Shown in pieces: positions 33,916 through 56,196 of a DNA stretch of 64,000 nt (the stretch's first letter is position 1; the number at the start of each line of letters is the position of its first letter). The stretch covers positions 2,820-66,819 of the forward strand of contig DATFZT010000205.1 in the NCBI GenBank assembly GCA_035314185.1, in the 5' to 3' direction. Below the pieces are notes generated by a model. The model did not search any database and was not told where the DNA came from. It saw only the letters and a program-made list of their open reading frames with translations. Both the position numbers and the translations under genes were made by a program. The DNA comes from Terriglobales bacterium. GTDB lineage: Bacteria; Acidobacteriota; Terriglobia; Terriglobales; Acidobacteriaceae.

Positions 33916-34037
33916 ATTGATGGACATAAATATTTATGTTAATCGATATAAGTTTGCTCCCGAGAACAACGTCTTAACCACAGGGGGCACAGGGGAACAC
34001 AGGGGCGAACATTTCTTTTGGAGAGGGGAACTGGTTG

Positions 34038-39078: not shown

Positions 39079-39193
39079 AGGGCTGAAATCTTACGTTTGG
39101 GGATCGGGCAAGTCAACCGAATGGTGGTGCGCGGACACTACTCGACGATGCAATGGTGCGACCTTGTTCATGCTGTCCAACTTCACACTCTGT

Positions 39194-39628: not shown

Positions 39629-39738
39629 GGGGAGAGGCTCCTTTTTGATTGAAGATCGAAATGATCATCGCACGTTTGGGGATTGGGGGATGAAGTGTTC
39701 GCGGGACTCGATGCCATGAAGGGTAGCGGCAGTGGAGC

Positions 39739-39802
39739 GGAGGCCGAGCTACGCTCGGCTTGGACGGGCGAGGCGCCCGTCCCCACACTAGCCGTCACCA
39801 CA
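39739..39802. repeat. REP-like hairpin element, family B
   Basis: ggaggccgagctacgctcggcttggacgggcgaggcgcccgtccccacac with stems gccgagc/gctcggc and ggacgggcg/cgcccgtcc. Copies listed below. Confidence 0.85.
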
Positions 39803-39807
39803 CTTGG

Positions 39808-41928
39808 TTATTCGTCTAGGAGGATGCGGATCTTGCGGGTCAGGGCATCGAGCGAGAAGGGCTTTTGCAGGACGGCGGCGGTGTCATCGACGGGGGCGCC
39901 GTCCCAGGTGGAGTGGTCGGGATAGCCCGACATAAAGAGGACCTTCATTTGCGGGCGCGATTGGGCTAGACGATGGGCCAATTCCTGACCACCTAGATTG
40001 GGCATTACGACGTCGGTCAGTAGGAGGTGAATTGGGAGTTCGTACTCGTCCGCAATCTGGAGAGCCTGGTTGCCGTCCTCCGCCCAGAGGACTTTGTAGC
40101 CGCCTTGCTGCAGGAACTCGCAAACTAGATCGCGGATTCCATCCTGGTCTTCCACCAATAGAACAGTCTCGGTTCCGCGGGCGGGAGCGGTCTCTGTTCT
40201 CGAGGCAGGCTCTTTCGACTCGGCCTCATCCGGCTGCGCCTCGGGGAAATATATGTCGAAGGTGGTGCCTTGTTCCAACTTGCTCGACGTTGTGATCCAA
40301 CCGCCGGTTTGCTTCACTACGCCGTAGACGATGGCCAGGCCTAGGCCGGTTCCTTTGCCGGGTTTTTTGGTGGTGAAGAAGGGTTCAAAAATGTGGGCCT
40401 GGGTGTCGCTGTGCATTCCGGTGCCGTTGTCATTCACGGTGAGGACTACATACTTGCCGGGCGGAATGGGGGCATGGCTTCCGGCATGAGGTTCGTGAAG
40501 TTCGACGTTACTGGTCTGGATGGTGAGGCGTCCGCCCTGGGGCATGGCATCACGGGCATTGACGGCGAGGTTCAGGATCACTTGCTCCATTTGACCGGGA
40601 TCGGCCTTGATGCGATGGGGCGAGGTGGCGGGCAGGATATTCAACTCGATGTTGGCGGGAATGAGACGATCCAGCATCTTCGCGACCTCGGTCACGACTG
40701 CACTTAAATCGAGCGTCTTAAGCTGGAGCACCTGCCTGCGACTGAAGGCCAGGAGTTGCTGGGTGAGGGCCGCGGCGCGAGTGACAGCGCGTTCGATTTC
40801 AGCGGCATCCTTGTGCGCGGGATCGTCCGCAGCGAGGCGGCCGCGAAGGCGTTCATTGTGAGCCTGGATCACCATCAGAAGATTGTTGAAGTCGTGGGCT
40901 ACACCGCCCGCCAGGTGGCCCATAGCTTCCAGCTTCTGGGAGTGGCGGAGTTGTTCCTCCAAACGCTTGTGCTCGGTGATGTCGTAGAGCACGCCGTGCA
41001 TCAGGAGTTCGAGGTCGCCGGCCGCCGCCGGCAACATGACGGCCTCGTCCCGGAACCAGATGACACGGCCGTCGCGAGCAAACATGCGGTACTCGGCCTG
41101 GAATAGGTTGTGAGTCTCCTGAATGCGTTTCTCCGCCGCCAGGGCGATTTCACGATCTTCGGGGTGGATGTGGTTCAGCCAATTCATCCGGTTGGAGCGC
41201 CATTCCTCGGGTGAAAAACCAAGGATGGACTTGATTTGAGGGCTTACGTAACGCCAGTGTCCTGCCGCGCCGAGTTCGGCGATGTAGGTGATCGCCGGCA
41301 AGCATTCTACCAACGTGCGATACCGATCTTCCGCCGCCCGAAGCTGGGTCTTGTCTCGATCTCGTTCAATGGCGAGAGCGACGAGATGCGTGGCGTGGGC
41401 AATAATTTGTAGATGTTGAGCGTCCGGGGTACGCGGCTCGCGGTAGTAGATGGCAAAGGTCCCAAGCATGGTGCCATCCTGCGACGGGATGGGGGTTGAC
41501 CAGCAGGCCCGCAAGCCGTGAGCGAGTGCCACCTGGCGATAGTCCGCCCACAAAGGGTCGGTCGCTATATCGGAGACGATGACTGGCTGTTTACGATAAA
41601 CGGCGGTGCCGCACGACCCCGCGCCCGGCCCGATCTGCAACGGGTCGACGGCCTGGCAGTATTCCTGCGGAAGACTGGGAGCAGCCCCACCTCGCAAAGT
41701 CACGCCGTCGGAGTCCAGAAGAAGGACGGAGCACAGCATTCCGGAATTAAGGTGCTCAAGGTCGGCGCACAAAGCGTCCAGTATCTTGGGGAGCGGAGTC
41801 TGGCCCATGATCATGGCCAGTACCCGATCATCGAGCAGTGACAGCGACAGAGCCTGGGCGGCCGCCGCCGGCGTAATGGGCGCTTTCTTAACTCCTTCAG
41901 ACATTGCGGTTCGTTTCCGTCCTTTCAA
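39808..41928 (-). CDS. Hybrid sensor histidine kinase/response regulator (GAF-PAS-HisKA-HATPase-REC)
   Basis: H-box [12 protein letters not shown]-box [11 protein letters not shown]-boxes [14 protein letters not shown], and a C-terminal receiver ([12 protein letters not shown]...[13 protein letters not shown]...MSGY). Confidence 0.9.
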
Positions 41929-42112: not shown

Positions 42113-42451
42113 TCAAGCATATGATTCGACCGCGGCGTCGTCGTTATCGAAGACTTCGAACAAGTTGAGAACGCCCACCAAGCGCAGGGTTTGGATGGCG
42201 AACTTCGAAGGCTGAACGAGCTTGAGATTCCCCCCACGCTGTTTGGTGGATGCCAGAATGCGCATGACCAGACCGATGGCGCTGGAATCGATCATCGGTA
42301 CCTCGGCGAGATTCAGCACCAGGCGCGTGTCTCCGTTGCGCAGCGCTTCTTCCATGGTTTGGCGCAAACCGTCCACCGCCGGGCCCATGCGCAGGGGCCC
42401 ACGAAGCTGGATCAGTTGTACGGGCCCGCGTTTACGGACATTGATGTCCAC
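42113..42451 (-). CDS. STAS-domain anti-sigma-factor antagonist (SpoIIAA-like)
   Basis: LVLNLAEVPMIDSSAIGLVMRIL with the conserved phosphorylatable Ser context. I chose GTG 42451, preceded by AGGAG; the track start is 42541. Confidence 0.8.
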   Translation of the reverse strand: MDINVRKRGPVQLIQLRGPLRMGPAVDGLRQTMEEALRNGDTRLVLNLAEVPMIDSSAIGLVMRILASTKQRGGNLKLVQPSKFAIQTLRLVGVLNLFEVFDNDDAAVESYA

Positions 42452-42674
42452 ACTTTTCTCCTCGCGTCGCCTGGCAGGGCAATCTGTGGGGGATGTTTCC
42501 AGGACGCGGGTTAGGTTACGGAAAGGAAGCGCATTTTGCAAGCGCGGAGCCCGCCACGGGACGCGCGTCCGACCCCCGCCTTCCTGCTGGGGAAATGCGG
42601 GGACGGTCGGGGGGGGGCACGCAAGTTGAAAAATTCATCCCCAAAGATCGAAAAATTTGCCATAATCATTCACC

Positions 42675-44099
42675 GTGGGAGGGCCCATGCGCAGCGCCGC
42701 CGTCCGAAGTCAGCCTTTGCGATACAGCGTTTTTATCGTCACCACCGATGAACGGGTCAGTCCGGAGGCGGAAACCTTTTTGGCATCCGACTACGACTTA
42801 CGACTCTTCCAGACCTGGGAAGAGCTCATCGGGGCGCTCAAGAAGCAGCCTCCGCAAGCCATACTGCTGGACATCGACACGATCGCGGAGAACACCCATG
42901 ATGGTATTGCCGCGCTGGCCGAGCTGCGCTCGATAGAACCCGACCTGGTGCTGGTGGCTCTGACGCGTTCGAATAGCCGCAGCATTCGCCATAAGGCAAT
43001 CAACGCCACGGTGGACGAGTACTTTGTCGCGCCCATCGACTTCCAGGAAGTACACGTCGTCCTGACCCGGGCGCTGGAGAAGCGGACGGCAGAGATCGAG
43101 TACCGGGCGGAACAGGATAAGGAGGCGGAGCGGCAGTCGTTCCACGAACTGGTCGGCGCCAGTGAGGCCATACGCCTGGTGTATGAGGCAATTACGAAGG
43201 TTGCGCACAGCAACAGCACGGTGCTGCTCCGCGGGGAGAGCGGCACCGGCAAGGAACTTGTGGCCCGGGCGATTGTTGCGGTGGGGCCACGCTCGGAGAA
43301 GCCTTTTATCAGTATCAATTGCGCCGCCCTGCCCGAAAACCTCATCGAGACCGAACTATTCGGGCATGAAAAGGGAGCTTTCACCGATGCTCAAACGGCT
43401 CGGGCGGGGCACATCGAGCTGGCACACACGGGCACGCTTTTTCTGGACGAGATCGGCACCCTCGGTCTGGCGCTGCAGGCCAAGCTGTTGCGGGTGCTGG
43501 AAGACCGGGCAGTGACACGGATTGGGGGCAAGACTCCGAAAAAGATCGACTTTCGGCTTATCACCGCCACCAATGACAATCTGGAAGAATTGGTGCATGC
43601 GGGCCGGTTCCGGGAGGATCTCTATTACCGCATCAACGTGATCCCGATTGCGTTGCCTCCGTTACGCGAGAGGGCGGGAGACATTCCGCTCCTTATCAAT
43701 CACTTCCTGCGACTTTATTCCGAGATTAACCACGTGCCCGCGAAGCAGATGGAGCCCGAGGTGGTCGAGATCCTGGAGGAGTATGCCTGGCCCGGCAATA
43801 TCCGGGAACTGGAGAACCTCGTGCAGCGACTGGTGCTGATGGTGGACGGCCCGGTCATAAGGGCGCAGCACCTGCCGCAGCACATCCTGATGACCACAGC
43901 CACCAGCCAGGAAGCGCTGCTCATTCCTGAAGAGGGCGTAAATTTCGAGGAAGAGATGGCGCGCATCGAGGCGGCGTATGTGCGTGCGGCGCTGCGGCGT
44001 TCGGACGGCAGCAAGGTAGGAGCCGCGCGGCTGCTGCACATCGACAAGCAGAAGATGCACTACCTGTGCCGGAAATACCAGATCGGCAGAGAGGAGTAG
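42675..44099 (+). CDS. Sigma54-dependent transcriptional activator (NtrC/Fis family; REC-AAA+-HTH)
   Basis: Walker A GESGTGKE, sigma54-contact loop GAFTDA, Walker B TLFLDEIG, RFREDLYYRIN, and a C-terminal HTH AARLLHIDKQKMHYLCRKY. Confidence 0.9.
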   Translation: MGGPMRSAAVRSQPLRYSVFIVTTDERVSPEAETFLASDYDLRLFQTWEELIGALKKQPPQAILLDIDTIAENTHDGIAALAELRSIEPDLVLVALTRSNSRSIRHKAINATVDEYFVAPIDFQEVHVVLTRALEKRTAEIEYRAEQDKEAERQSFHELVGASEAIRLVYEAITKVAHSNSTVLLRGESGTGKELVARAIVAVGPRSEKPFISINCAALPENLIETELFGHEKGAFTDAQTARAGHIELAHTGTLFLDEIGTLGLALQAKLLRVLEDRAVTRIGGKTPKKIDFRLITATNDNLEELVHAGRFREDLYYRINVIPIALPPLRERAGDIPLLINHFLRLYSEINHVPAKQMEPEVVEILEEYAWPGNIRELENLVQRLVLMVDGPVIRAQHLPQHILMTTATSQEALLIPEEGVNFEEEMARIEAAYVRAALRRSDGSKVGAARLLHIDKQKMHYLCRKYQIGREE

Positions 44100-44267
44100 A
44101 CCGACGCCAAGATCAAGAGAAAGATTAAGAATTCATGTGTGAGCGGATGAGTTTTTAATCTCTTTGTCGGCGAGTGCTTTCCCAACCGCGAGTAATTCGC
44201 TCGAACCAGAGCCGCAACACTATGAAAAGCCAGCATTTTTGCCTCGTCGCGGAGCGGGCGGCGAGTT

Positions 44268-44283
44268 TGGCACAGGCCGTGCT
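44268..44283 (+). promoter_or_regulatory. Putative sigma54 (-24/-12) promoter
   Basis: TGGCACaggccgTGCT has GG (44269-70) and GC (44281-82) at the exact consensus spacing (TGGCAC-N5-TTGCW). It is 169 nt after the activator stop and 86 nt before ATG 44369. Confidence 0.6.
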
Positions 44284-44368
44284 CTTAGTGATGGCACGTG
44301 GGGCCGAACCCAGGGGAAGTAAAAATTCAGGAGTATCCGCCGCTAAGGCGAGAAAAGGGATCACTACC

Positions 44369-44533
44369 ATGTCAATCCAGAAAAAGTCGTTGATCGGCAG
44401 CCGACCGGCGGAAGCGAAGGCCACAGCGCAACCAGTAAAGGGGACCCTCGGCGAGGCGAAGGCTATCACCGCCACATCGCTGCGCAGGAAGTCTGCGAGA
44501 GGTTTGTCCTTCAGGGCCGCAAAGAAGAAATAG
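44369..44533 (+). CDS. Small cationic peptide, paralogue 1 (54 aa)
   Basis: MSIQKKSLIGSRPAEAKATAQPVKGTLGEAKAITATSLRRKSARGLSFRAAKKK. ATG chosen because the paralogue at 44634 shares the MSIQKKSLI N-terminus. AAGGG lies 9 nt upstream. Confidence 0.5.
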   Translation: MSIQKKSLIGSRPAEAKATAQPVKGTLGEAKAITATSLRRKSARGLSFRAAKKK

Positions 44534-44633
44534 GTGTCAGTGAGGCTACGAGCTTGTCGTAGCTTCTGCAATTATCAAGATCATTCAGAGCGTTCAAATT
44601 TCCAACACGGAACACCAAGAAAGGGTGGCAAGC

Positions 44634-44831
44634 ATGTCGATCCAGAAGAAGTCGTTGATCAGCAACCGAGTTGCGGTAAGAAAGGCCTTGATCGCGAGCC
44701 AGCCAGCCGAAGAAGGCGGCGAGCTGAAAGCAAACTCGCTCACGGCACAGTCCATGAAGAGCAAGAGGGTACTTGCCCACAAGGCGTTCAGAGTCGCTGC
44801 GTTTAAAGTTTCGGCTATGAAGAGAAAGTAA
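44634..44831 (+). CDS. Small cationic peptide, paralogue 2 (65 aa)
   Basis: MSIQKKSLISNRVAVRKALIASQPAEEGGELKANSLTAQSMKSKRVLAHKAFRVAAFKVSAMKRK. AAGGG lies 8 nt upstream. Preceded by the hairpin gctacga/tcgtagc (44545-44563). Confidence 0.5.
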   Translation: MSIQKKSLISNRVAVRKALIASQPAEEGGELKANSLTAQSMKSKRVLAHKAFRVAAFKVSAMKRK

Positions 44832-44906
44832 GACCAAGCAAAATTCGGGCAAGGTGGACGAGGCTGCGACGAACCGCAGCCTCGTCTCATTTCGACCCAG
44901 TCTCGT

Positions 44907-47048
44907 TCACCAGATCTTGCGATCGACAAAATCGCGTATCTGCTTTCCGGCCAGGCCGGCCAGAGTTCGGTGCGCGATCAGGATCTTGGCAGTTCCTGAC
45001 GTTCCGGCCCGAAGCTGGCCGTCGGCGTTCGGCACCAGCGCCGTGACGCCGTAGAAATCCATGCCCGTCAGTCCCTTGTAGCCTTCGACAGGAGCCAGCC
45101 CAGGTTCCATTCCCGACGCTGAAGGCGCAACTTCAAGTACGCGCGAGTGCAGCCGCTCGAATGAGGAATCCATCTTCAGGGAGACACGGTCTCCGGCGCG
45201 TACATCCCGCAAATCGAATTCCGGAAGGTAAATCCGCGCGCGCAGAACGCTCACGTCCGCCACTTCGAGCAACAGGGCGCCGGCCTCGACATAAGAGCCG
45301 GCCAGATCGGGGAGGCGGGGAGTGAGCACAACTCCAGAGATGGGGCTGGTGGGTTGCAAAGCAGACAACTGCGACGCCAACTCGGCGGATTGGCGGCGAA
45401 GCGACTCGCGCTGCTGCTCCGCGCGACTGTAATCGGCATAGTGCAACCGCGCCTCCGCCGCCCGCAGGGAAGCGACCTGCAATTCGGAGTTGACCAGTGC
45501 CGCTCGTCCTTCTAAATCGAGGTTGCGCAGGCGAACCAGGGGCGCTCCGGCTGCGACGAACTGCGCCTCGGTGGGGAACACCGATACGACTTCTCCGGGC
45601 ACAGTGGCGTGAACGGCGGCTGTGCGCATGGGTTCAAGGTTGAATCGCCCCGTGCGAGTTTCCGGCCAGATGGGAGTGAACAGGAGCAACGCCACCAGTG
45701 CTCCCACGAATGCGGCGCGGGGTGTGAGCAGCCAGCGTCGGGCGCGCTCTTTTTTGTCGAGGTAAAAGGTTTTCATGAATCTCACCAATGTGCGGATCCG
45801 CGACTTGAAAATCAGCAGGGCCAGCAGCCCGGCCGGAACGAACGCCCATTCGGGCGAATATTTCCGGAACACGTTGTAGGAGAAGGTGACCACCACGTAG
45901 AGCAGGGTATAGCTGTAGATGCCCGAAATAATGGCATAGACGGAGAACAGCCAGCGGCGCCGGCGCGGCACGAATTCCACTTCGACGGGAAGACCGAAGA
46001 CATGCCTCTTGATCCAGGTGGAGACGAAGGCGGTAGAGTCCTCCTTTAGCCCGATTATGCCGACGAGTTCACAGAGGATGTAATAGCCGTCCAGTTTGAT
46101 GAGCGGGTTGAGATTGATGATGGCGACGCCTACTCCGGTGATGAGAATGATTTTGTAGGCGAGATCATGCACGGGAGTGCCGGCGGGCGTTCCCCACCAA
46201 ATGATCGAGGCGGCGGAGCAGAACATCAATTCCACCCAGATCCCGGCGATGGAAGTGGCGATGCGCGCCCACTTCCCGGCGTAAATGTAGACCTCCGTCA
46301 CGTCCACGAAAAAACATGGTTCGAGATAGTAGAGGAGGAAGCCCATCTTGTGGACGGCTCCGCCGAAGTGCTTGCAAGTAAGGCCATGCGCGGATTCGTG
46401 GAAGAAGCCGAGAAAGCAGAACAGGAGCCAGAACTCGGCGATGTCGCCCAGTCCCTTTTGAGTAAAGTTGTAATACTTCCAGGTGTCGGCGCCGATCTCG
46501 CTCCAGCGGTCGATGAAGATCCAGGCCATGAAGGCGAAGAAAGCCAGCGTCAGCAGGATGAACCAGCCGTCGTAAACGAACTTGGCCTTTTCGTGCAGGC
46601 GGGTCAGGTAGGTGTCTGGATCCCAGTGGCCCACGGTTATGGTGGTGATGTCCTCCCATTTCTTGGTGGCGCGTTTATGGCGCTCCTCGGCGCCTTTCTG
46701 GGCGGCCATGACGTTGGGTTCCTGCGGCGCGGTGTACCAGATTTCATCGAGCTCGCTGACGTATTCCTGAATACTCTCGGGGGAGTAATAGACTCCGGCG
46801 CGCGCCCTGAAGGTATTCGACACTTCTTCGTAGGAGCGCTCTCCGTTGAAGAGCTGCAGCAACTCCCATTGTTGGGGGGTAAAGCGGTACAACTGGTTTG
46901 CGCCCGAAACGATGGCGTAGATCACTGGTTCGCCGCTCTCCATTTGTGTTCGGGCCAACACATGAGGATGGAGCCGGGGACAGCGTTTACGGACCGAGCG
47001 GGGCGGCAGGTCCGGCAGGGCAACGTGAAGGGCTTCGGTGAGATTCAT
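44907..47048 (-). CDS. Site-2-protease-type (M50) zinc metalloprotease fused to a HlyD-like membrane-fusion domain
   Basis: FFHESAHG (HExxH) and NLNPLIKLDGYY (NxxPxxxxDG) within a polytopic region. C-terminal barrel-sandwich/coiled-coil (PGEVVSVFPTEAQFVAAGAPLVRLRN...). I chose ATG 47048, which forms an ATGA overlap with the upstream stop; the track start is 47120. Confidence 0.8.
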   Translation of the reverse strand: MNLTEALHVALPDLPPRSVRKRCPRLHPHVLARTQMESGEPVIYAIVSGANQLYRFTPQQWELLQLFNGERSYEEVSNTFRARAGVYYSPESIQEYVSELDEIWYTAPQEPNVMAAQKGAEERHKRATKKWEDITTITVGHWDPDTYLTRLHEKAKFVYDGWFILLTLAFFAFMAWIFIDRWSEIGADTWKYYNFTQKGLGDIAEFWLLFCFLGFFHESAHGLTCKHFGGAVHKMGFLLYYLEPCFFVDVTEVYIYAGKWARIATSIAGIWVELMFCSAASIIWWGTPAGTPVHDLAYKIILITGVGVAIINLNPLIKLDGYYILCELVGIIGLKEDSTAFVSTWIKRHVFGLPVEVEFVPRRRRWLFSVYAIISGIYSYTLLYVVVTFSYNVFRKYSPEWAFVPAGLLALLIFKSRIRTLVRFMKTFYLDKKERARRWLLTPRAAFVGALVALLLFTPIWPETRTGRFNLEPMRTAAVHATVPGEVVSVFPTEAQFVAAGAPLVRLRNLDLEGRAALVNSELQVASLRAAEARLHYADYSRAEQQRESLRRQSAELASQLSALQPTSPISGVVLTPRLPDLAGSYVEAGALLLEVADVSVLRARIYLPEFDLRDVRAGDRVSLKMDSSFERLHSRVLEVAPSASGMEPGLAPVEGYKGLTGMDFYGVTALVPNADGQLRAGTSGTAKILIAHRTLAGLAGKQIRDFVDRKIW

Positions 47049-47944
47049 CGCGGATTGGGGATGCGCACACTGGCGCTCATGCCGGGCCGCAGTCCAGTGG
47101 TCGGCCCTACGAGCTGGCACAACACTTCGATGGTGCCGCTTGAGGGATCAACGACCGGGCTGATTTCTATTACGCTGGCTCCCCAGCGCTGGCCATCGAC
47201 ATCGGGAGAAGTCAACTCGAAGCGCTGACCTCGGGCGATATGGCCCAGGAAACTCTCGGGCAAGGTGAACCGAATGCGGAGGGGCGACTCGGCAGTGACC
47301 CAGAAGAGGCGATCTCCGAGGCTGACTTTCTGGCCGGCTCGCACGTAGCGGCGAGCCACGACCCCGTCGAAAGGCGCAGCCACCCGGGTCTTCTCCAACT
47401 CCAGTTCGAGCGAATGTTCGCTGGCTTGCGCGTCCACCAGAATCTCCCTTACACGCTCTACATCCCAGTGATCCGATTCGGCTTTGTAGCGCGCATGCTC
47501 AATCTGTTCCTTGGGGATGACGTGTGCCTCCCACATCTTTTCGGCCCGTCGCAAGTCGGCGTCAAGCATCTTGGTTTCCGCTTCCCAGTTGTGCAGGTCC
47601 GCGGCGGTGCTGCGGGTGCGGGCGCGGGCAGCTTCGAGGTTCGCCGAAACCTGGCGGTCATCGAGTTGCGCCAGAAGCTGACCCTTCTTCACCTTGGTGC
47701 CGGGCTCGGCGAAGATGGTGGCGATCATGCCCTCCCTTTGTGCGCCCACGTCGACCTGGTCTTCGACGACGAGGGGACCGGAAGCGAGGAACACCTTTTC
47801 GGCGGGCGCGGGCGCGGGCGTCGGGGACGGATTCGGAGAAGCGTTGGCGGCGGCAACCACGGGACGGGAATCTCCGCAGCCGAGCCCCAGGCCCATCATT
47901 ATCGTTATTGCTACGATGACAAGTGTCGGCATTATCGACTTCAT
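47045..47944 (-). CDS. HlyD/RND-adaptor family periplasmic lipoprotein
   Basis: Lipobox MMGLGLGCG, then GMIATIFAEPGTKVKKGQLLAQLDD, a coiled-coil hairpin and a beta-barrel (RVAAPFDGVVARRYVRAGQKV). Confidence 0.8.
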   Translation of the reverse strand: MKSIMPTLVIVAITIMMGLGLGCGDSRPVVAAANASPNPSPTPAPAPAEKVFLASGPLVVEDQVDVGAQREGMIATIFAEPGTKVKKGQLLAQLDDRQVSANLEAARARTRSTAADLHNWEAETKMLDADLRRAEKMWEAHVIPKEQIEHARYKAESDHWDVERVREILVDAQASEHSLELELEKTRVAAPFDGVVARRYVRAGQKVSLGDRLFWVTAESPLRIRFTLPESFLGHIARGQRFELTSPDVDGQRWGASVIEISPVVDPSSGTIEVLCQLVGPTTGLRPGMSASVRIPNPR

Positions 47945-47988
47945 GGCTGACCTCCGAACGCTACCAACCGATCTTTACCAACCGACCT

Positions 47989-50400
47989 TTACCAACCAAA
48001 CCATGACCACAATTTGGAATAGATCCACATGGCGGGACGGCGGAACATAACGTAGCCCACCGGGCGCCAGCCCGCCATGACTTTAGCGCGGCCGTGCATC
48101 CCGGAACGAATCAGGGAATCGGGATTCGACACCAGGACGCGGGCGTAGAAAACCTTCTGATCATTTTGGAGGCTGCTGATCGGGCTTACGATCCGCACCT
48201 CTCCGGGAAAACTTCTTGTCGGGAAGGCGTCCAGTTTGACCGTGGCCGGACGTCCGGGCTGCAACAGAACCGCATCCAATTCGTCGATGGCGAGGTCGAC
48301 ACTGGACTGGGTGGAATCGATCACTTCGAGAAAGCTGTCGGACGGCGACAGATGCCGGCCCACAAAGTTCTCGACGTGAGGAGTGGCGACGACGCCCTCG
48401 AGGGGCGAACGCAAGTGCGTCCGCTCGAGGCGTTCCTGGGCCCTTTTCAACTCGGCGGCCCAGTATTCTGTTTGTACGCGCTGGATTCCTGCTTCCGTGC
48501 CATCGTTGGCGGCCAGTGCGCGGTTCATCTCCGAGACGGCAGTCTGATATTTGGCATTGGCGGCGGCCAGTGCCGAGCGAAGGTCCCAGTCCTCGAGATC
48601 GGCCAGAAGCGTGCCGGGGTGGACGCGATCCCCCTCGCGCACGAAGACGGATTTCACGACGCCATCCATCGAGGACATGACCTGAGCTTTGCGAACGGGC
48701 CCAACCGTGGCGTCTCCGTCCAACCGCATTGGGATCGGGAAAAAAGCTAGAAACAGGGCGGCTGCTAGCGCGCCCGCCAAGATGAGCGCGCGCCGGCTCT
48801 TTTCGAGCGCGAGAAAGCGGCGCTTCCTTTCGAGTACGGGCTCGAGCAGGCTGATGAACGGTACGTCGCGATAGAGCGAGGCGTTGCGCAAAGCGACCGT
48901 GGCCTGTGCGGCCAGCACGCGGACAATTTCGAAGTGCGCCCGAGTCATGAAGTCCGGGTCATGGCTCTCAAACGAGAGGATGCCGAGCGCGCCCTGATCG
49001 TCATCGAGTGGGAGCGCATAGAAGGCGCGGGCCCCGGTGGCGGCGAAGTATTCGCTGAACTTGGTGCGGCTGGCCTCGCGTGACACATCTATGGTTTCGC
49101 CATGCTGGGTAACATGAATCTCTTCTTTCGAAAGGGAGGCCCACTCCAGCATTTCCTTCAGCAGCTTGATGGTGGGATCACTGGGATTGATCTGAGGCAA
49201 GCCGGACACGGCCTTCAGATGAACGCTGCCCCGCTCTTCGAGCGCAATGGCGGCGCGGTCATAGGAAAGGACACCTTGCGTATCGTTGACAATTACCTGG
49301 AGGACGCGATCGATGTCCAGGGTCGAGGTAATCTCCCGGCTAACTTTTACCAGGGTTTCAAGAATTTCGACTTTGCGCTCCGCTTGCAGCAGGCTGGCGT
49401 TGTGCAGAGCGTTGCTGGCGGTTTCGCAGATATTGCTCAGCAAAAACTGATCGTCCTCGTCGAAAGGTAGACCGTCCAGGCGATTGGTGGCTTCGACGAC
49501 ACCGACCAGCGATTCCCGGTCCATGAGGGGCGCTCCTAGAAGCGAAAAGATCGCTCCCTCTTTGGCCTGAACTCTAACACCAGCGTTCCGCTTCTGAAGA
49601 CGCGGATCTTCGGGATCATTGATCAGGACGGGTTCGCCGTTGTCCGAGACGTCGCCTGGAACTCCATCGCCTGGGCTCTCGAGCGATTCCAACTCCACCG
49701 TCGGATCATTTCCGGCGCGGCGCACCAGCCTGACCGCGTCCCCATCCACCATCCACACATTTACCGCTTGAGTGCGCAGGACTTCGTGGAACTTGGCCGC
49801 AATCGTGTCGAGCAGGGGATCGAGATCCAGGTTCGAGTTGAAGACCTTTTCCAGGTCATACATCTGGGTGACGCGGCTGATCGATTGGAGACTGGTATTG
49901 CGCTCGCTCTCATATGAGAGAGCGACAGCGATGGCCGGCGCAGCCAGTTCAGCGACGTCGCTCAGTTGCTGCAACACTGAGTCGGGAAATGTCTGCTCGA
50001 AGTTGACCAGCTCTATGGCGCCGACCAGAGTCTGCGTCACCAGGAGTGGAGCATACGCGAGAGAAACCACGGTGCGGCGGATATCCAGATGAGCATAGTC
50101 TTCACGCTTCAGGTTGGCGCCCTCGAAGACCTGGGGCGTCTTGTTCTCCGCCACCGCTCCCAGCGGGCCTTCGTGAAATTCCATCGCGTCGGTGACCGCG
50201 ATCTCGCCCGCCGTCGCCTTGGCTGTCCAGACGGGATTTCCCTGATCGTGGATGACATAGACCACAACTGCCGTGCCGGGAAAGAGTTCGGCTACCCGGT
50301 CAGCCGTGGCTTCCGCACGGGGGATCACCTCTTGCTGGGCCAGCAAGGCTGCGGCAAATTCAGCCACCGGAATCGCCAGTTCGGATCTTCGAATCGTCAT
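47989..50400 (-). CDS. 3xGAF - TM - HlyD-like membrane-fusion protein
   Basis: Three repeats of about 170 aa, each ending in a GAF-type helix (AIAVALSYESE, ASNALHNASLL, ATVALRNASLY). TM segment ALILAGALAAALFLAFFPIP, then DGVVKSVFVREGDRVHPGTLLADLED and LRSPLEGVVA. Confidence 0.8.
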   Translation of the reverse strand: MTIRRSELAIPVAEFAAALLAQQEVIPRAEATADRVAELFPGTAVVVYVIHDQGNPVWTAKATAGEIAVTDAMEFHEGPLGAVAENKTPQVFEGANLKREDYAHLDIRRTVVSLAYAPLLVTQTLVGAIELVNFEQTFPDSVLQQLSDVAELAAPAIAVALSYESERNTSLQSISRVTQMYDLEKVFNSNLDLDPLLDTIAAKFHEVLRTQAVNVWMVDGDAVRLVRRAGNDPTVELESLESPGDGVPGDVSDNGEPVLINDPEDPRLQKRNAGVRVQAKEGAIFSLLGAPLMDRESLVGVVEATNRLDGLPFDEDDQFLLSNICETASNALHNASLLQAERKVEILETLVKVSREITSTLDIDRVLQVIVNDTQGVLSYDRAAIALEERGSVHLKAVSGLPQINPSDPTIKLLKEMLEWASLSKEEIHVTQHGETIDVSREASRTKFSEYFAATGARAFYALPLDDDQGALGILSFESHDPDFMTRAHFEIVRVLAAQATVALRNASLYRDVPFISLLEPVLERKRRFLALEKSRRALILAGALAAALFLAFFPIPMRLDGDATVGPVRKAQVMSSMDGVVKSVFVREGDRVHPGTLLADLEDWDLRSALAAANAKYQTAVSEMNRALAANDGTEAGIQRVQTEYWAAELKRAQERLERTHLRSPLEGVVATPHVENFVGRHLSPSDSFLEVIDSTQSSVDLAIDELDAVLLQPGRPATVKLDAFPTRSFPGEVRIVSPISSLQNDQKVFYARVLVSNPDSLIRSGMHGRAKVMAGWRPVGYVMFRRPAMWIYSKLWSWFGW

Positions 50401-50597: not shown

Positions 50598-52058
50598 TTA
50601 CTTTCCGATGCAGAATGTGCCGAAGATGAGGTTGAGGATGTCGTCGGTGGTGGTGGCGCCGGTAATTTCGTCGAGGGGGCGCAGGGCGGCGTAGAGATCG
50701 AGCAGGAGCATCTCGTGGGGGACTCGGGCAGCTACGGCACTGGTGGCGGCGGCGAGCGCGGTTAGCGCGTCGCTGACTAGTTTCTGGTGGCGAACGCTGG
50801 TCAGGAAGCCGGATTCCTGCTGGGCGGTGGAGTCTCCGGCCGCGTGGTGGAGAATGGCGGCACGGAGGGCGGGGATGCCTTCGCCGGTGAGGGCGGAGGT
50901 GGGGATTACGGGCGTCGTCGGCGTTGCCGAGCTGCTCCACCCCGTCAACCCAACACCGGGCTTGTCGGGGACCCCGGTGCGCTCGGCTGGACGGGCGAGG
51001 CGCCCGTCCCCACACGTGCCGTCTCCACGCTCGGCCAGCAGGTCGCATTTGTTTTCTACTACTATCGCTGGGCGGGCTTCGATCTGGCGCAGTACTTCTT
51101 GGTCTTCTTCGTTCAGGGGCTGAGTTTTATCGATTACCACGAGGACTAGGTCGGCATCGGCCAAGGCTTCCATTGATTTCTTGATGCCGATACTTTCGGC
51201 TTCGGCGTCGTTTGGGGCGCGACGGATGCCGGCGGTGTCCACCAGTTCCACAGGAATTCCACCGATGGAGACGGTTTCGCTTACCAGGTCGCGCGTGGTG
51301 CCGGGCTCGGCGGTGACGATGGCGCGCTCACGCTCGACGAGGCGATTGAAGAGGCTCGATTTGCCTACGTTCGGACGACCTACGATGGCCAGGGTCAGTC
51401 CCTGGTGAACGAGCTTGCCGTAGGTGAAAGAGGCGGCTAGTTGTTGCAGTGGCGCTTCGATCTTCGCTATGCGATCAAGGATGGTGGCGTCTTGCGCTAT
51501 GGAAACGTCGTCTTCGGCGAAGTCGATGCCGGCTTCGAGCAGGGCGATCAGGTCCACTAAATCTTTCTTGATGGGCTTCAGGCGATTGGACAGCGCTCCT
51601 TCTAATTGCTGGGCGGCCACTTTCGCCTGGAATAGAGTTTGCGCGTCGATGAGGTCGCGGACGGCTTCGGCCTGGGTCAGGTCGAGGCGTCCGTTGAGGA
51701 AGGCGCGCATGGTGAATTCTCCGGGCTCGGCTAGACGGGCCCCGCGGGCTAGGGCTAGCTCGACAATGTGGCGCAGGACTACGGGGGAGCCGTGGGCGGA
51801 GATTTCTATGATGTCGTCGGTGGTGTAGGAGTGGGGCTTGGCGAAGTAGGTGACTATGACTTCGTCGATGCGGGTGGGAGGTGTGGTGGAGGGGTCGATC
51901 AGGTCGCAGTGGAGTGCTCGGTTGGGTTCGAGGTCGCGACTTAGGCGCAGCATGGGCTGGGCTATTGCTCGCGCTCCAGGACCGGCCAGGCGGACTACGC
52001 CTATGCCACCGCGTCCGGGCGGGGTGGCGATGGCGACTATGGTGTCATCGAGATTCAC
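50598..52058 (-). CDS. mnmE: tRNA modification GTPase MnmE
   Basis: [23 protein letters not shown]1 [10 protein letters not shown]3 DTAG, G4 NKCD, and C-terminal FCIGK. 486 aa, with an extra loop encoded by a REP element. Confidence 0.95.
50976..51036. repeat. REP family-B element inside mnmE
   Basis: ggtgcgctcggctggacgggcgaggcgcccgtccccacacgtgccgtctccacgctcggcc, the same element as 39739-39802, 56197-56248, 61315-61346 and 62464-62515. Confidence 0.85.
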
Positions 52059-52067
52059 ACGAACATT

Positions 52068-52523
52068 CTAGCTGTGTGACACTGTGTTCACGCTAGACGT
52101 CTGTTCGGCGCTGCGCGTCCACTTCCGATAAACAACGAAGTGGTAGAGGGCGAGAGGAAGGGGAATAAGAAAGAAAAGAAACGGGAACCAGAGGGCACGC
52201 TTCAGCCATGACGATTGGTCGAAGCCGAACCAAAAGTACAGCATCGCCACCCATAGCAACGCGCTCCCAATAACCTCCGGAATAAGGACCAACCGCAAGA
52301 TGGCGGCGGTTGACGGCGGCAAGGTGTGGGATCCAATGGCGGATTGAGCGGCACGCGTTCCGGCCAAGGTTCCACTTAACGCCAGAGCCAGCACGGAGCA
52401 AATGAGATACACACGTCGCGCGACGCGGGAAACCATCCACGTCCGTGAGATGGGCAGGATCATCATCGGGACGGAGCAGCTTATCACGTGATAAACCGGT
52501 TTGCTGCATCTGGTCCGGGTCAT
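52068..52523 (-). CDS. Hypothetical membrane protein upstream of mnmE
   Basis: 151-aa ORF with 3-4 hydrophobic segments (e.g. [40 protein letters not shown]). It ends 9 nt before the mnmE start. Confidence 0.45.
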
Positions 52524-52579
52524 TTATACTTACGGTTTGCCTTAAGCCATCTGATTCAATCAGGGAGCAAGGATTTTCG

Positions 52580-52735
52580 ATGCCGAAACGTACATTTCAA
52601 CCCAACAAGCGCAAGCGCTCGAAGAAGCACGGGTTCCGGACTCGCATGAAGACCAAGAGCGGGGCCGCAGTGCTGTCGCGCCGCCGGGCCAAGGGGCGCA
52701 AGCGTGTTTCCGTGGCGCCGGGTTTCCGCGATTAG
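52580..52735 (+). CDS. rpmH: 50S ribosomal protein L34
   Basis: [47 protein letters not shown] 52580 follows GGGAGCAAGGA; the track ORF starts earlier (52445). Confidence 0.95.
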
Positions 52736-52809
52736 TTTTCCCCACAACGGACGGCAAAGGCCGTCTTAATTACTATTACTATTACTAACTGTCGTTACTA
52801 CCAACTATT

Positions 52810-53310
52810 GTGCAGGATTGTGAGCTGGTGAGCGCCGACGCTCCGGAACGGAGTCGAGAGCACACCGCGGCCAACGCGGGCGGGAGCTTTCCGCGTGGCT
52901 CTTCGCGTTTGGGGCGGCTGCTGAAGCACTCCGATTTCAATCGCGTGTACAAGGAGGGGCGGCGGCACTTTTCCTCGCACATGACCGTGTTTTTTCTGCG
53001 GCGGGCGGATGCAGACTTGCCGCAGACTGCTTTGCCGGAAAGCGCCTTACCGGAGAAGCTTGCGCGCGTCGGGTTCACCGTGGGACGCGTGCTCGGCAGC
53101 GCAGTCGAGCGGAACCGGATCAAGCGGCGCTTGCGCGAAGCGGTGCGGCAGCGGCGTCTGGTGCTGAAGGACGCGGGGGCGGTGGATGTGGTGATCAATC
53201 CGAAGAAATCGGTGCTGACTCTGGAATTTTCGGAGGTGCTCGAAGAAGTGGGCCGGGCGCTGGACGTGATCGCGAAAAAGCTGTTGGGGAATGGAGAAAC
53301 GAAGAAATGA
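52810..53310 (+). CDS. rnpA: Ribonuclease P protein component
   Basis: [17 protein letters not shown]...[27 protein letters not shown] (RNR motif). The start is uncertain because the N-terminal 30 aa are not conserved-looking. Confidence 0.8.
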
Positions 53311-53570
53311 AGTCTCTGACGCTGGCGCTGCTGCTAGTTTACAAGCGGTGGATTTCGCCTTTGTTTCCACCGTCGTGCCGCTACGTGCCGACTTGCTCGG
53401 AATACGCCTTGGAGGCGGTCGAGCGATATGGTGCGATGCGCGGCGGGGCTTTGGCGGCTTGGCGGGTGTTGCGGTGCCATCCGTTGGCTGCGGGCGGGCT
53501 GGATCCGGTGGTGGCGAATCCCACTCATTCGCACAAAACGCGAATGAGTGGGGCACCCACGATGTTGTGA
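53307..53570 (+). CDS. yidD: Membrane protein insertion efficiency factor YidD
   Basis: [52 protein letters not shown] overlap with the rnpA stop. The last ~18 aa are translated from a REP hairpin. Confidence 0.9.
53519..53558. repeat. REP-like hairpin, family F, forming the yidD 3' end
   Basis: cccactcattcgcacaaaacgcgaatgagtggggcaccc with stem ccactcattcgc/gcgaatgagtgg. Twin at 23701-23742. Confidence 0.8.
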
Positions 53571-53649
53571 TGCACTGCCGAGCTTCGCTCGGGGCGGACG
53601 AATGCGCGCTACGTGGACTGTGGTGCTGACGAAGAGATGAGTTACTGAT

Positions 53650-55476
53650 TTGGCTGAATTTAATAATCCTCAACAAGAACCCGGGATGGAGCGCAGGCTG
53701 CTGGTGGTGTTTGCGCTTACGTTTCTGGTCATCATGCTGTTCCAGCCACTTTTGAAGAAGTATGGGCCGCAGCCTCCGGCGAAGACGGAGAGTGAGAACG
53801 CTGCCGGGCTTCGCCCGGCCGTACAGCCGGGGGCGGCTGTCGCTACGCAGAATCCGGCGCAGATCTTGGCGCAACGTAAGCAGGCCGATCTCCCTCCGGG
53901 CATAAAGGTGATACGCGATTCGAGCCCGGTGCAGGCGACGAGCGAGCGCGAGACAGTGGTTGAAAATGACGTGTATCGAATCGTTTTCACCAATCGCGGC
54001 GCACGGGTGAAGTCGTGGGTGCTGAAGAAGTACACCGACGATAAAGGCGGACAGCTTGAATTGGTAAATGCAACGGCGGCGGAGAAGTATGGATATCCGC
54101 TGACGTTGTGGACGTATGACGAGGCGCTGCGAGACAAGGTGAACTCGGCGCTGTACGTGGGGTCGCACTTCGCAACCAGGACCGATACCGCCGGCGCCTC
54201 TCCCCTCGGTGCCAGCTACACCGCTCCCACGGAAGTCGTCTTCGGATATTCCGACGCCGATCTCTCGGTGCGGAAGACCTACACGTTCGACGCCAGCACC
54301 TATGTGGTTGGGGTGAAGACGGCAGTCACTCAGAAGGGTGCGCAGGTCGCGGCGTTTCCGATGTGGCCTGCGGGGTTCGGCGCGGACATGACCGGGCCGC
54401 AATACGCGTCTGGGCAGATCGTTTATCAGTACGACGACAAGGTTGAGCGGCTGGCGATCAAGAAGATCAGCGGCGGCGGGACGCTGCAGGGACCGTTCCA
54501 CTGGGCAGGATTGTCGGACCAGTATTTCGCGGCAGTGTTCTTGCCGGCGGATCCAAAGAACGCGGCGATGGTGACGCTGCGGAATGCGATTGAAATTCCG
54601 CATGGCGGGTCCGATACGAAGCAGATGGACAAGGTGGACGTGCTGGGCGCGGCGGTGGGGAACGAGAGGGGCGCGAGCGATGTCCGAGTGTATGTGGGTC
54701 CTAAGGCGCTGGCGGATTTGGAATCGGTTTCGGTGCCGGGGATTACGGGCGCGGAACCGGACTTGCGGGCGATCATCGACTTTGGCTGGCTGGGAATCAT
54801 CGCGCGGCCGCTTTTTTTGTGGTTGAAGTGGATGTACAGCCACATCGTCCGTAATTGGGGCTGGGCGATTCTGCTGCAGACGCTGGTCATCAACCTGGCG
54901 CTGCTGCCGCTGCGGCTTTCGCAGATGAAGTCGATGCTGAAGATGCAGCGGGTGGCGCCGCAGATCAAGGCGATCCAGGAAAAGTACAAGAAATACAGTT
55001 TGCGTGATCCGCGCAAAGCGGAAATGAACACGGAAATTTCGGCGCTGTACAAAAAGGAAGGCGTGAATCCGGCGGGTGGATGTCTGCCGCTGGTGATCCA
55101 GATGCCGTTTCTGTTTGCGTACTACCGGATGCTGAACGTGGCGATGGATCTGCGGCACGCGCCGTGGCTATGGATTCATGATCTCTCGGCGCCCGATCCG
55201 TGGCACATTCTGCCGGTTGCGATCATCATCACCATGCTTGTGATGCAGCGGATGACGCCGCAGGCGGGCATGGATCCGGCGCAACAGAAGATGATGAACG
55301 TCATGATGCCGGGGATGCTGGGCATCATGAGCTGGAACTTGCCGGCGGGGTTGGGCTTGTACTGGTCCGCGGGTCAGCTGATCGGGATCGTACAGCAGTC
55401 GGTGATGAATCGCACGTCGCTGGGGCGCGAGATGCGCGAGATGATGGAGAAGCGGGCGCGGAAGAAAGAGAGATAG
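53650..55476 (+). CDS. yidC: Membrane protein insertase YidC
   Basis: 608 aa with an N-terminal TM segment and a large periplasmic domain. Conserved core GWAILLQTLVINLALLPL, MQRVAPQIKAIQEKYK, NPAGGCLPLVIQMPFLFAYY and WNLPAGLGLYW. Confidence 0.95.
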   Translation: MAEFNNPQQEPGMERRLLVVFALTFLVIMLFQPLLKKYGPQPPAKTESENAAGLRPAVQPGAAVATQNPAQILAQRKQADLPPGIKVIRDSSPVQATSERETVVENDVYRIVFTNRGARVKSWVLKKYTDDKGGQLELVNATAAEKYGYPLTLWTYDEALRDKVNSALYVGSHFATRTDTAGASPLGASYTAPTEVVFGYSDADLSVRKTYTFDASTYVVGVKTAVTQKGAQVAAFPMWPAGFGADMTGPQYASGQIVYQYDDKVERLAIKKISGGGTLQGPFHWAGLSDQYFAAVFLPADPKNAAMVTLRNAIEIPHGGSDTKQMDKVDVLGAAVGNERGASDVRVYVGPKALADLESVSVPGITGAEPDLRAIIDFGWLGIIARPLFLWLKWMYSHIVRNWGWAILLQTLVINLALLPLRLSQMKSMLKMQRVAPQIKAIQEKYKKYSLRDPRKAEMNTEISALYKKEGVNPAGGCLPLVIQMPFLFAYYRMLNVAMDLRHAPWLWIHDLSAPDPWHILPVAIIITMLVMQRMTPQAGMDPAQQKMMNVMMPGMLGIMSWNLPAGLGLYWSAGQLIGIVQQSVMNRTSLGREMREMMEKRARKKER

Positions 55477-55487
55477 CTGTCGGCTAT

Positions 55488-55630
55488 CAGCTATCAGCTG
55501 TCAGTTTAATCCAGTCCCTAAAGGGGCGTTTGATTTTCGAGGAATTTACGGTATCGCTAAAGCGATACCCTGATACGAACCTTTCGTCGTTTGCGACGCT
55601 CTTAGCATTTACTGAGAGCTGATAGCTGAG
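55488..55630. repeat. Structured spacer bounded by 17-nt inverted repeats (MITE- or ncRNA-like)
   Basis: cagctatcagctgtcag (55488-55504) versus ctgagagctgatagctg (55612-55628), with 1 mismatch. Internal hairpins include ggtatcgct-aa-agcgatacc (55550-55569) and cgtcg-tttg-cgacg. Confidence 0.6.
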
Positions 55631-55640
55631 AACTTTACTT

Positions 55641-56183
55641 ATGCCGATCACTGACAAGGTTGTTGCCGCTAAACAGATTGGGGAATTTTTGCAGGCCGTC
55701 ATTTCCAATGGCGGCTTCAAGCTGAAGTATCGGATCACGGTGGATCCTCCGATCGCGCAGAATCGCGAGTGGGAGCATCCGGAAATTCTGGTGGAGTTTG
55801 CGGGGCCGGATTCGGCGCTGTTGCTGGAACGCAGTGGAGAGTTGCTGCGTTCGTTCGAGCTGCTGGCGTCGGAGATTCTGCACCTGCAAGGCAACGAGCA
55901 CGAGAAGATCTGGTTCGACTGCAAGAACTTCCGGGCGATGCGGATCGACGAGTTGCAACTGGCGGCGCGGGTGGCGGCGGAGCAGGTGCGGCGGACGAGC
56001 GAGCCTTACCGGTTCGGGCCGATGTCGTCGCGGGAGCGGCGGATTGTGCATCTGGCGTTGCGCGAGGAAAAAGATTTGCGCACGGAGAGTGACGGCGAGG
56101 GCGGACGACGGTCGGTGGTGGTGTATCCGGCGAGTTATAAGTCGGCGGCTCCGGCGCGGCGGGAACGGCGGACGATTTCGTAG
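55641..56183 (+). CDS. jag: KH/R3H RNA-binding protein Jag (KhpB-like)
   Basis: KH-like VEFAGPDSALLLERSGELLRSFELLA and R3H MSSRERRIVHLALREEKDLRTESDGEGGRRSVVVYP. Typical position after yidC. Confidence 0.8.
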   Translation: MPITDKVVAAKQIGEFLQAVISNGGFKLKYRITVDPPIAQNREWEHPEILVEFAGPDSALLLERSGELLRSFELLASEILHLQGNEHEKIWFDCKNFRAMRIDELQLAARVAAEQVRRTSEPYRFGPMSSRERRIVHLALREEKDLRTESDGEGGRRSVVVYPASYKSAAPARRERRTIS

Positions 56184-56196
56184 TGGCCGAATTTCG

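Follow-up and report, generated by a model that had tools for sequence, protein, structure and literature searches.

A conserved trio of membrane fusion proteins in Terriglobia, one joined to a leader-peptidase-like protease, as a candidate pump-free export machine for cationic peptides

What might three periplasmic adaptors do when no pump is encoded beside them? The question is raised by a 64,000-nucleotide (nt) stretch of DNA from a Terriglobales bacterium (GenBank assembly GCA_035314185.1, contig DATFZT010000205.1, positions 2,820 to 66,819), referred to here at its full length as the window. On its minus strand lie three genes that we call g1, g2, and g3, which encode, in that order, a protein with three GAF domains, one transmembrane (TM) segment, and a membrane fusion protein (MFP) part; a lipoprotein MFP; and a fusion of a site-2-type metalloprotease with an MFP. 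The original prediction, made from the sequence alone, read the set as a regulated device for processing and releasing a peptide or protein rather than as a set of efflux adaptors, and domain scans, pumpless loci, and the literature support the view of a device that would cleave and export its substrate. That prediction had not included two leader-bearing peptide genes (44369-44831), control by sigma-54, or the proteobacterial trios that occur with TolC and giant adhesins. We now consider it reasonably probable that g1-g2-g3 form the inner-membrane/periplasmic core of a leader-dependent processing-and-export machine that works without an ATP-binding cassette (ABC), resistance-nodulation-division (RND), or major facilitator superfamily (MFS) pump and that has the products of the two peptide genes, pepA1 and pepA2, as its substrates.

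The trio and its protease fusion

A genome scan found relatives of g3 at 552 loci among genomes of 185,579 species, and 80 Terriglobia loci with 10-kb flanks were analyzed; the closest relatives of the window were Candidatus Sulfotelmatobacter/Terriglobales metagenome-assembled genomes. The order g1-g2-g3 was kept in 79 to 80 of the 80 loci, so the arrangement is not due to chance, and a convergent activator gene came next in 72. Cultured carriers of such loci include Granulicella sp. S190 and Tunturibacter empetritectus M8US30 (L041 and L056). When open reading frames (ORFs) of at least 90 amino acids (aa) were clustered within ±10 kb of these loci, a limit below which the peptide genes fall, the only conserved neighbors were g1, g2, g3, the activator, and a STAS-domain protein; the peptide genes complete this set.

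g3 (44907-47048, minus strand; 713 aa) joins in one chain an RRE-like domain (residues ~24 to 100; RRE, recognition element of ribosomally synthesized and posttranslationally modified peptides [RiPPs]), a protease domain (~140 to 440), a TM segment (445 to 461), and a periplasmic MFP (460 to 713). Residues 24 to 404 matched NF041824, the daptide intramembrane metalloprotease, from profile position 1 (E 5.6e-45). The YydH/LiaK model (NF058609) matched at E 1.7e-10, which bears out YydH as the nearest analogy that had been named, and RND_mfp matched at 1.7e-14. The HESAH (217 to 221) and NLNPLIKLDG (312 to 321) motifs were intact, as had been claimed, and H217, E218, H221, N312, P315, and L319-D320-G321 were invariant across 46 g3 homologs. 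In the AlphaFold2 (AF2) model of g3 (mean per-residue confidence score pLDDT, 78.7), residues 30 to 98 were arranged as strand-strand-strand-helix-helix-helix, which is RRE-like. The C-terminal 250 residues were assigned to the MFP by Pfam (HlyD_3 and HlyD_D23) and matched MacA/MexA/AcrA/EmrA in Foldseek at ~1e-13; for the N-terminal half, the best Foldseek matches, though weak, were the site-2 protease MjS2P (3b4r) and the leader-bound RRE protein TbiB1 (5v1v; probability 0.91 and E 0.43 for the TbiB1-leader match).

A hidden Markov model (HMM) scan of the trio thus found HlyD, GAF, and M50-type domains and, with Peptidase_M50 itself below threshold, placed the protease with YydH/LiaK and the daptide leader peptidase. 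Judged from these profile matches, g3 shares homology over its N-terminal half with the RiPP leader peptidases that depend on an RRE (daptide MpaP and YydH/LiaK), and on the same grounds its protease belongs to the RRE-dependent leader-peptidase clade and not to the RseP/SpoIVFB type. According to the daptide study, MpaP removes the leader by means of an intramembrane site-2 protease that carries an RRE fused to its N terminus. g3 and these proteins share an N-terminal RRE, a site-2-type protease with HExxH and NxxPxxxLDG motifs, and an adjoining precursor gene with a conserved leader. The known proteins stand alone, in company with modification enzymes and ABC exporters, whereas g3 is fused to a periplasmic MFP and has neither linked to it. 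Among the features that mark an RRE-site-2 leader peptidase, the catalytic motifs, the N-terminal RRE, and the adjacent leader precursor were therefore present, and an equivalog-level score and modification enzymes were not found. The start of g3 is taken to be the ATG at 47048, which lies within the ATGA stop/start overlap with g2 (47045-47048) that had been noted and is confirmed here. An upstream GTG at 47120 was rejected as the start, because the 120 homologs listed all begin with MNLTEAL and are ~713 aa long.

g1 (47989-50400, minus strand; 803 aa) carries three cytoplasmic GAF domains (residues ~30 to 512), a single strong TM segment (538 to 556) detected in a TM scan, and a periplasmic HlyD/EmrA/MacA-like MFP (~558 to 803), in agreement with the predicted layout. 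Pfam matched GAF in three stretches (E 2e-33), HlyD_D23 (1e-19), and HlyD_3, and matches to sequences in the PDB were to EmrA, MacA, and GAF domains. The GAF domains may act as a ligand sensor. g2 (47045-47944, minus strand; 299 aa) is a short MFP with a GLGLGC lipobox. Its assignment as a lipoprotein holds: Cys23 of the lipobox falls opposite the Cys at the mature N terminus of MexJ in the alignment, and a lipobox is present in 54 of 75 g2 orthologues. g2 scored 153 bits, over the cutoff, against TIGR01730 (RND_mfp), covering profile positions 16 to 245 of 322. Its best PDB sequence match was the TriA-TriB fusion 6vej (E 9e-20), and its hairpin tip reads R-x3-M-x6-P when aligned to the hairpin-tip segment of MacA, which we take to hold the R-x3-L-x6-S TolC-contact (RLS) motif.

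The coordinates given for the three ORFs in the original prediction were thus exact, and so was its statement that each carries an MFP region (HlyD_D23, HlyD_3, and TIGR01730 matches); the three lipoyl-type peptides that it quoted were all found in the three proteins. HlyD_D23 and HlyD_3 matched g1, g2, and g3 alike, so that lipoyl, beta-barrel, and alpha-hairpin domains are represented in each. The RND_mfp matches ended at positions 245 to 248 of 322 in all three proteins and did not cover the MFP membrane-proximal domain, which g2 lacks. A precedent for a heteromeric MFP assembly is TriABC-OpmH of Pseudomonas aeruginosa, which has two different MFPs. TriAB serve the RND pump TriC, however, whereas the trio consists of three MFPs with no RND pump and no membrane-proximal domain. 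A role of g1-g3 in anti-phage defense was considered and set aside, as PADLOC gave no match.

The peptide genes and their sigma-54 promoter

The gap of 800 bp between g3 and the convergent sigma-54 activator gene (42675-44099) contains two plus-strand genes, both convergent on g3. pepA1 (44369-44533) encodes 54 aa beginning MSIQKKSLIGSRPAEAK, a paralogous precursor with a core of net charge +9; pepA2 (44634-44831) encodes 65 aa beginning MSIQKKSLISNRVAVRKALIAS, with a leader and a K/R/F-rich C-terminal core (net +7 over residues 23 to 65). Both start with MSIQKKSLI, are preceded by Shine-Dalgarno sequences, and have strongly basic tails, the plan in each case being a conserved 22-aa leader (MSIQKKSLI..KKAIIA) followed by a cationic core. 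Minus-strand ORFs at 44155-44571, 44511-44852, and 44594-44929 were dismissed as shadows of these genes. Between the convergent pepA2 and g3 lies a 12-bp GC-rich hairpin (44857-44886; RNA fold, −34.9 kcal/mol; z −5.5 on the plus strand and −3.9 on the minus strand) that is likely a bidirectional terminator; a hairpin between pepA1 and pepA2 was weak (z −1.7) and was discarded.

In 74 of 81 sources, the interval from g3 to the activator gene contained a leader-bearing small ORF, in one to three copies per locus, with pepA1-type first-copy orthologues in four loci (L002, L004, L017, and L036). The leader consensus was M-S-I-Q-K-K-S-L-I-[SG]-N-[LR]-x-A-x-K-K-A-I-[IV]-A-[TS], and the codon-position entropy over the leader (0.76/0.61/1.33) indicates selection on the peptide reading frame and hence a protein-coding gene. 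Among the seven sources without such an ORF, the contigs of L005, L034, and L068 end less than ~150 nt past g3, and L013 has only ~740 nt of downstream sequence. At L016 and L040 (12100-13400), the trio was present, the activator and the downstream leader peptide were absent, and an XRE-type helix-turn-helix (HTH) protein was encoded instead. All 62 homologs of pepA2 were annotated "hypothetical protein," and the peptides matched no family in Pfam or NCBIfam. When 1.84 billion representative proteins were searched with a profile, the leader turned up only at the N terminus of 41- to 138-aa proteins with like cores.

Beyond the leader and an S/T/A/P linker, the cores are hypervariable. Cys, Trp, Asp, and Glu are nearly absent, net charge ranges from +5 to +24 (median, +12), and 54 of 81 peptides have tandem-repeat cores with periods of 3 to 24, such as LAKGT x12, KTA x11, NPTKL x15, and GLSGGK x19. 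The window belongs to a subfamily in which the conserved part is longer (to about residue 46) and is followed by a short, variable K/R/F-rich tail. In one pair of loci, g3 is 92.7% identical and the leaders are 100% identical, yet every repeat unit differs (NLGGK versus SLGAK); a second pair likewise differs in its repeat unit (LAKGT versus LAKNA). From such sequence comparisons, the peptide repeats evolve in concert. When L015 was compared with L019 and L020 with L027 (peptide genes at ~12470-12580), ~90 to 93% identical machinery and 90 to 100% identical leaders went with repeats that had all switched to one new sequence. The leader columns showed no conserved GG, GA, or GS motif of the kind that ends leaders cut by C39 peptidases in peptidase-containing ABC transporter (PCAT) systems. 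Nor do the peptides look like carriers of a C-terminal type I secretion system (T1SS) signal: their conserved element is N-terminal and their C termini are hypervariable. As far as gene position and leader conservation can tell, pepA1 and pepA2 are most likely the substrates of the trio in the window organism.

The peptide genes appear to be under sigma-54 control. A −24/−12 promoter element (TGGCAC-N5-GTGCT; 44268-44283, plus strand) lies 101 nt upstream of pepA1. A single site of this kind is not significant by itself, and the weight rests on recurrence across loci: in 45 of 68 loci, versus 0.48 expected, the element preceded the first peptide gene at a distance of 61 to 106 nt (~94-fold; Poisson P, ~2e-71). 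A sigma-54 promoter before g1, found in only 1 of 75 loci, was discarded. The activator, encoded at 42675-44099 on the plus strand and convergent on g3, is a sigma-54 enhancer-binding protein of the NtrC type whose receiver domain is atypical (Pfam Sigma54_activat, 5e-68; AAA_lid_14; HTH_8; weak Response_reg). Its loop reads GAFTGA or GAFTDA in 56 of 65 orthologues, the remainder being single-residue variants; D54 of the receiver is retained in 60 of the 65 and K104 is replaced by Ala in 50. Both hallmarks of a sigma-54 system, the promoter and an AAA+ activator with the GAFTGA loop, were thus found, and on the strength of this arrangement the activator likely drives pepA1 and pepA2.

Divergent from the activator gene, on the minus strand at 42113-42541, is a gene for an anti-sigma-antagonist-like STAS-domain protein (Pfam STAS, 3.4e-14). 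A STAS gene, located either beside the activator or upstream of g1, occurred in 65 of 80 loci (50 of 56 when only full-length loci are counted). A SpoIIAB-like HATPase_c_2 kinase accompanied it in 16 loci by ORF clustering and in 21 by tblastn (for example, at L029 14900-15340), a pairing that suggests a partner-switching module.

Orthologous cassettes and the missing pump

The original prediction had stated that no pump or TolC-like gene lies in the window. Neither a Pfam survey of ~40 window ORFs nor tblastn with TolC and SecA-like queries detected a pump or outer membrane factor (OMF) there, and no ABC transporter or C39 peptidase was found either, so that the dedicated ABC component of a T1SS is absent from the window. 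The same held for a wider search for hidden components, as neither a pump nor a SecA paralog, a DUF3467 protein, or TolC came to light in the window or the 80 acidobacterial loci. The neighborhood survey found that a linked pump is not a regular feature of these loci: ORFs with ABC-ATPase motifs (Walker A plus LSGGQ) occurred in 4 of 81 loci and RND-like ORFs in ~3 of 81, the latter ~5 kb or more from the trio, and neither was ever adjacent to it.

Proteobacterial counterparts were sought by tblastn of g3 against plasmids, followed by look-up of annotated regions, and full-length RRE-M50-MFP fusions were found. The three window proteins paired by best hit with their architectural counterparts: g3 at 4e-42, g2 with a short MFP at 2e-15, and g1 with a long MFP at 5e-27, the best g1 counterparts being GAF-TM-MFP proteins (5e-27 to 5e-21). 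By best-hit relationship and architecture, then, the window trio and the proteobacterial trios are orthologous. In Escherichia coli, the cassette consists, in order, of genes for a DUF4347 Ig-like giant protein (4,459 aa), TolC, a 293-aa MFP, a 449-aa MFP, and a 710-aa M50-MFP, with no further gene. It is flanked by insertion sequences (IS) and occurs on IncF plasmids (L081) and one chromosome (E. coli H5; L083 4611-24362), in 24 of 5,426 complete genomes and mostly on plasmids. Variovorax and Luteibacter carry the identical five-gene set amid unrelated neighbors, and none of the E. coli, Variovorax, and Luteibacter cassettes contains a pump gene. Homologs of the E. coli protein number more than 3,000, and all bear generic names.

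Alphaproteobacterial clusters are built differently. The order in Rhodobacterales and Methylosinus (L084 6702-13075, L085 6693-15369, and L082 6100-12048) is giant protein, DUF3467 protein, long MFP, RRE-M50-MFP (annotated "PqqD family"), and SecA paralog. The giant-protein genes are 24 to 38 kb long. DUF3467 was found in Pseudosulfitobacter and Methylosinus (L084 and L085) and not in the Alisedimentitalea annotation. The long MFPs have 617 to 629 aa, with GAF confirmed by Pfam for the 621- and 629-aa proteins. A short MFP was present in two clusters examined and TolC in one (Methylosinus), so that TolC adjoins an orthologous trio in E. coli, Variovorax, Luteibacter, and Methylosinus. The SecA paralog, whose gene adjoins that for the M50-MFP, is truncated (638 to 660 aa; SecA_DEAD, 1e-99; PPXD), and in one case it was misannotated as a "prepilin peptidase."

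The giant proteins of Pseudosulfitobacter and Methylosinus begin with a LEPR-XLL domain (NF012209; E 1e-8 and 1.7e-7). A likeness by eye between IQKKSLIS of the acidobacterial leader and LEPRVLLS of LEPR-XLL was not supported: NF012209 did not match the peptides, and the leader HMM was negative on the N termini of the giant proteins. The two kinds of cassette have in common an orthologous short MFP, a GAF/mid-length MFP, and an M50-MFP, without a linked pump. They differ in that the proteobacterial substrates would be proteins of ~3,000 to ~12,700 residues, several with a LEPR-XLL/DUF4347 N terminus, and TolC is linked, whereas the Terriglobia loci encode 50- to 160-aa cationic peptides with an unrelated leader, are under sigma-54/STAS control, and have TolC unlinked. 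No giant ORF adjoins the trio in the window.

Among known export systems, the T1SS and PCAT systems (HlyBD-TolC and colicin V CvaAB-TolC) come closest in their logic of a one-step MFP-OMF conduit, which the orthologous cassettes with TolC and giant adhesins share. PCAT systems couple leader cleavage to export. In contrast with both, the trio lacks an ABC transporter and carries a metalloprotease on an MFP rather than a C39 domain on the ABC protein; its signal is N-terminal, not C-terminal and RTX-type as in the T1SS, and it has three different MFPs instead of one. With no inner-membrane transporter, the trio lacks the component that defines T1SS and tripartite pumps. Accessory SecA2 systems resemble the alphaproteobacterial clusters in having a dedicated SecA paralog, but the known ones have no MFP/TolC or site-2 protease component, and the acidobacterial loci have no SecA paralog. 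No functional description of the trio was found in the openly searchable full-text literature, a corpus that does not include subscription-only works; the nearest publications were the daptide and TMcin papers and an account of the canonical T1SS of enterohemorrhagic E. coli (EHEC) O-island 28. That island was considered as a known equivalent of the E. coli cassette and rejected, being an ABC-type T1SS. The claim that no characterized example exists therefore stands within that literature, with generic names on more than 5,000 homologs.

The window lies at a chromosomal replication-origin region, with gidB, parA, parB, mnmE, dnaA, and dnaN at 31944-35177 and 50598-59421 and a cumulative GC-skew minimum at ~32 to 34 kb. 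Beside the trio locus, on the minus strand at 36070-41928, are genes for a Ser/Thr kinase with TPR repeats (1,002 aa) and a GAF-PAS-HisKA-HATPase-REC hybrid kinase. The Ser/Thr kinase (36070-39078), the hybrid kinase (39808-41928), and mnmE were rejected as parts of the system, as they are not conserved beside the trio elsewhere. Farther away, the minus strand carries a CHAT-domain protein (700 aa), a TPR protein, and an ECF-type sigma factor fragment in series (5280-9601; possibly a CHAT-protease signaling module) and a CAAX/Rce1-like intramembrane protease adjoining a HAAS-domain protein (13993-15389). The minus-strand ORF at 53047-55158 (703 aa) matched neither Pfam nor NCBIfam, and ORFs at 21088-22596, 24016-25893, and 10991-12184 had no Pfam match.

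A proposed export route and its alternatives

Since g3 shares with MpaP the architecture of an RRE joined to a site-2 protease, we propose a route of four steps. The NtrC-type activator would fire the sigma-54 promoter, and the precursors would be made; the leader of each precursor would dock on the RRE domain of g3; the protease domain would cut off the leader at the membrane; and the core would exit via a heteromeric tube of the three MFPs docked on an unlinked TolC-like channel. Leader binding, cleavage, export, the stoichiometry of the MFPs, the roles of the GAF and STAS domains, and the energy source are all conjectural elements of this scheme. Energy could possibly come from the housekeeping SecA or from an unlinked transporter; a motor gene, that for the SecA paralog, is encoded only in the alphaproteobacterial clusters. 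HlyD engages its substrate through a cytoplasmic N-terminal extension, and by analogy the GAF domains of g1 could gate assembly.

Several observations weigh against this proposal. No energy-coupling component is linked to the trio in Terriglobia or in the gamma- and betaproteobacterial cassettes, none of the 80 acidobacterial loci showed a TolC within 10 kb by tblastn, and the outward movement of a polycation opposes the membrane potential. g3 scored 20.5 bits against Pfam Peptidase_M50 (cutoff, 27.2) and fell below the NCBIfam equivalog cutoffs, with 154 versus 300 bits for the daptide model and 41 versus 225 for YydH/LiaK, so that it is a homolog and a member of neither equivalog. The fold matches of its RRE and site-2 protease regions have E values of 0.1 to 0.4. 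No RiPP modification enzyme, whether a daptide decarboxylase, aminotransferase, or methyltransferase or an epipeptide radical-SAM epimerase, was conserved within ±10 kb, and the locus is therefore not a classical RiPP cluster. Finally, as no relationship could be detected between the acidobacterial leader and LEPR-XLL, the equivalence of the acidobacterial and proteobacterial substrates rests on position only.

Could the trio instead be an ordinary adaptor set, in which three MFPs serve one or more conventional ABC, RND, or MFS pumps encoded elsewhere and the small ORFs are unrelated? The canonical MFP domains with alpha-hairpins in all three proteins would suit such a role, OMF genes are often unlinked, and heteromeric MFP pairs such as TriAB exist. 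We nevertheless find this quite improbable. The pump is unlinked not only in 81 acidobacterial sources but also in the E. coli, Variovorax, and Luteibacter cassettes that do carry TolC; small-molecule efflux has no use for a fusion to an RRE-site-2 leader peptidase; a gene for a leader peptide or a giant protein adjoins the trio; and the membrane-proximal domain for contact with RND pumps or MacB is missing from all three MFPs. Another possibility is signaling by regulated intramembrane proteolysis, whereby the MFPs would sense the envelope and the protease would cleave the peptide or another factor and so control the sigma-54/STAS circuit, with no export. Site-2 proteases classically act in signaling. 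The co-conservation of GAF, STAS, and an activator with an atypical receiver also speaks for this reading, as does a sigma-54 promoter at the peptide gene alone and not at g1-g3. We regard it as unlikely, given that the protease groups with RRE-dependent leader peptidases and not with RseP/SpoIVFB, that the proteobacterial cassettes have no regulators but do have TolC and giant surface proteins, and that hypervariable, multicopy leader-plus-core peptides are typical of exported products.

The small proteins might also be cytoplasmic, histone H1-like or otherwise polyanion binding by virtue of their K/R/A/P repeats, and be linked to the trio by shared regulation rather than as substrates. Weak compositional matches to the Hc2 and H1-like families and the resemblance of the cores to KPAA-type repeats point that way. 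These matches, like those to pentapeptide repeats, were rejected as low-complexity hits below cutoff. Moreover, the invariant part of the peptides is the N-terminal 22-aa leader and not the basic repeats, the peptide gene abuts that for an RRE-leader-peptidase homolog, and the wholesale change of repeat units between near-identical strains is more in keeping with a secreted, diversifying product than with a nucleoid protein, so that we hold this explanation to be very improbable. Each of the three alternatives covers part of the data, and each is weakened by the pump-free cassettes with linked TolC, by the placement of the protease among leader peptidases, and by the adjacency of the leader genes.

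Returning to leader-dependent export by the trio, there is a substantial chance that export of this kind, based on MFPs and an OMF, is a distinct secretion type. More tentatively, and short of an even chance in our estimation, the trio plus TolC may represent an unrecognized one-step secretion type that spans phyla, cuts leaders, dispenses with ABC, RND, and MFS pumps, is powered by SecA, a SecA paralog, or something else, and handles substrates as small as the 50-aa polycationic repeat peptides of Terriglobia and as large as proteobacterial adhesins with more than 12,000 residues, the mobile cassettes of E. coli being among its carriers.

If the export model is true, a leader-cutting intramembrane protease fused to an adaptor would replace the energized pump in export across the Gram-negative envelope, and the minimal tripartite machine would be redefined. 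The family is large: more than 2,200 homologs are known from Acidobacteria and more than 3,000 from Proteobacteria, and the annotation now in use is "HlyD family efflux transporter adaptor." The model would also supply a secretion route for giant surface proteins of the LEPR-XLL/DUF4347 kind, which are widespread and include those of the IS-flanked E. coli IncF cassettes. Terriglobia are abundant in soil, and their secreted products are almost unknown. In these bacteria the peptides would constitute a new family, polycationic, repeat-based, hypervariable, and controlled by sigma-54, and they could be antimicrobials, binders of matrix or minerals, or signals.

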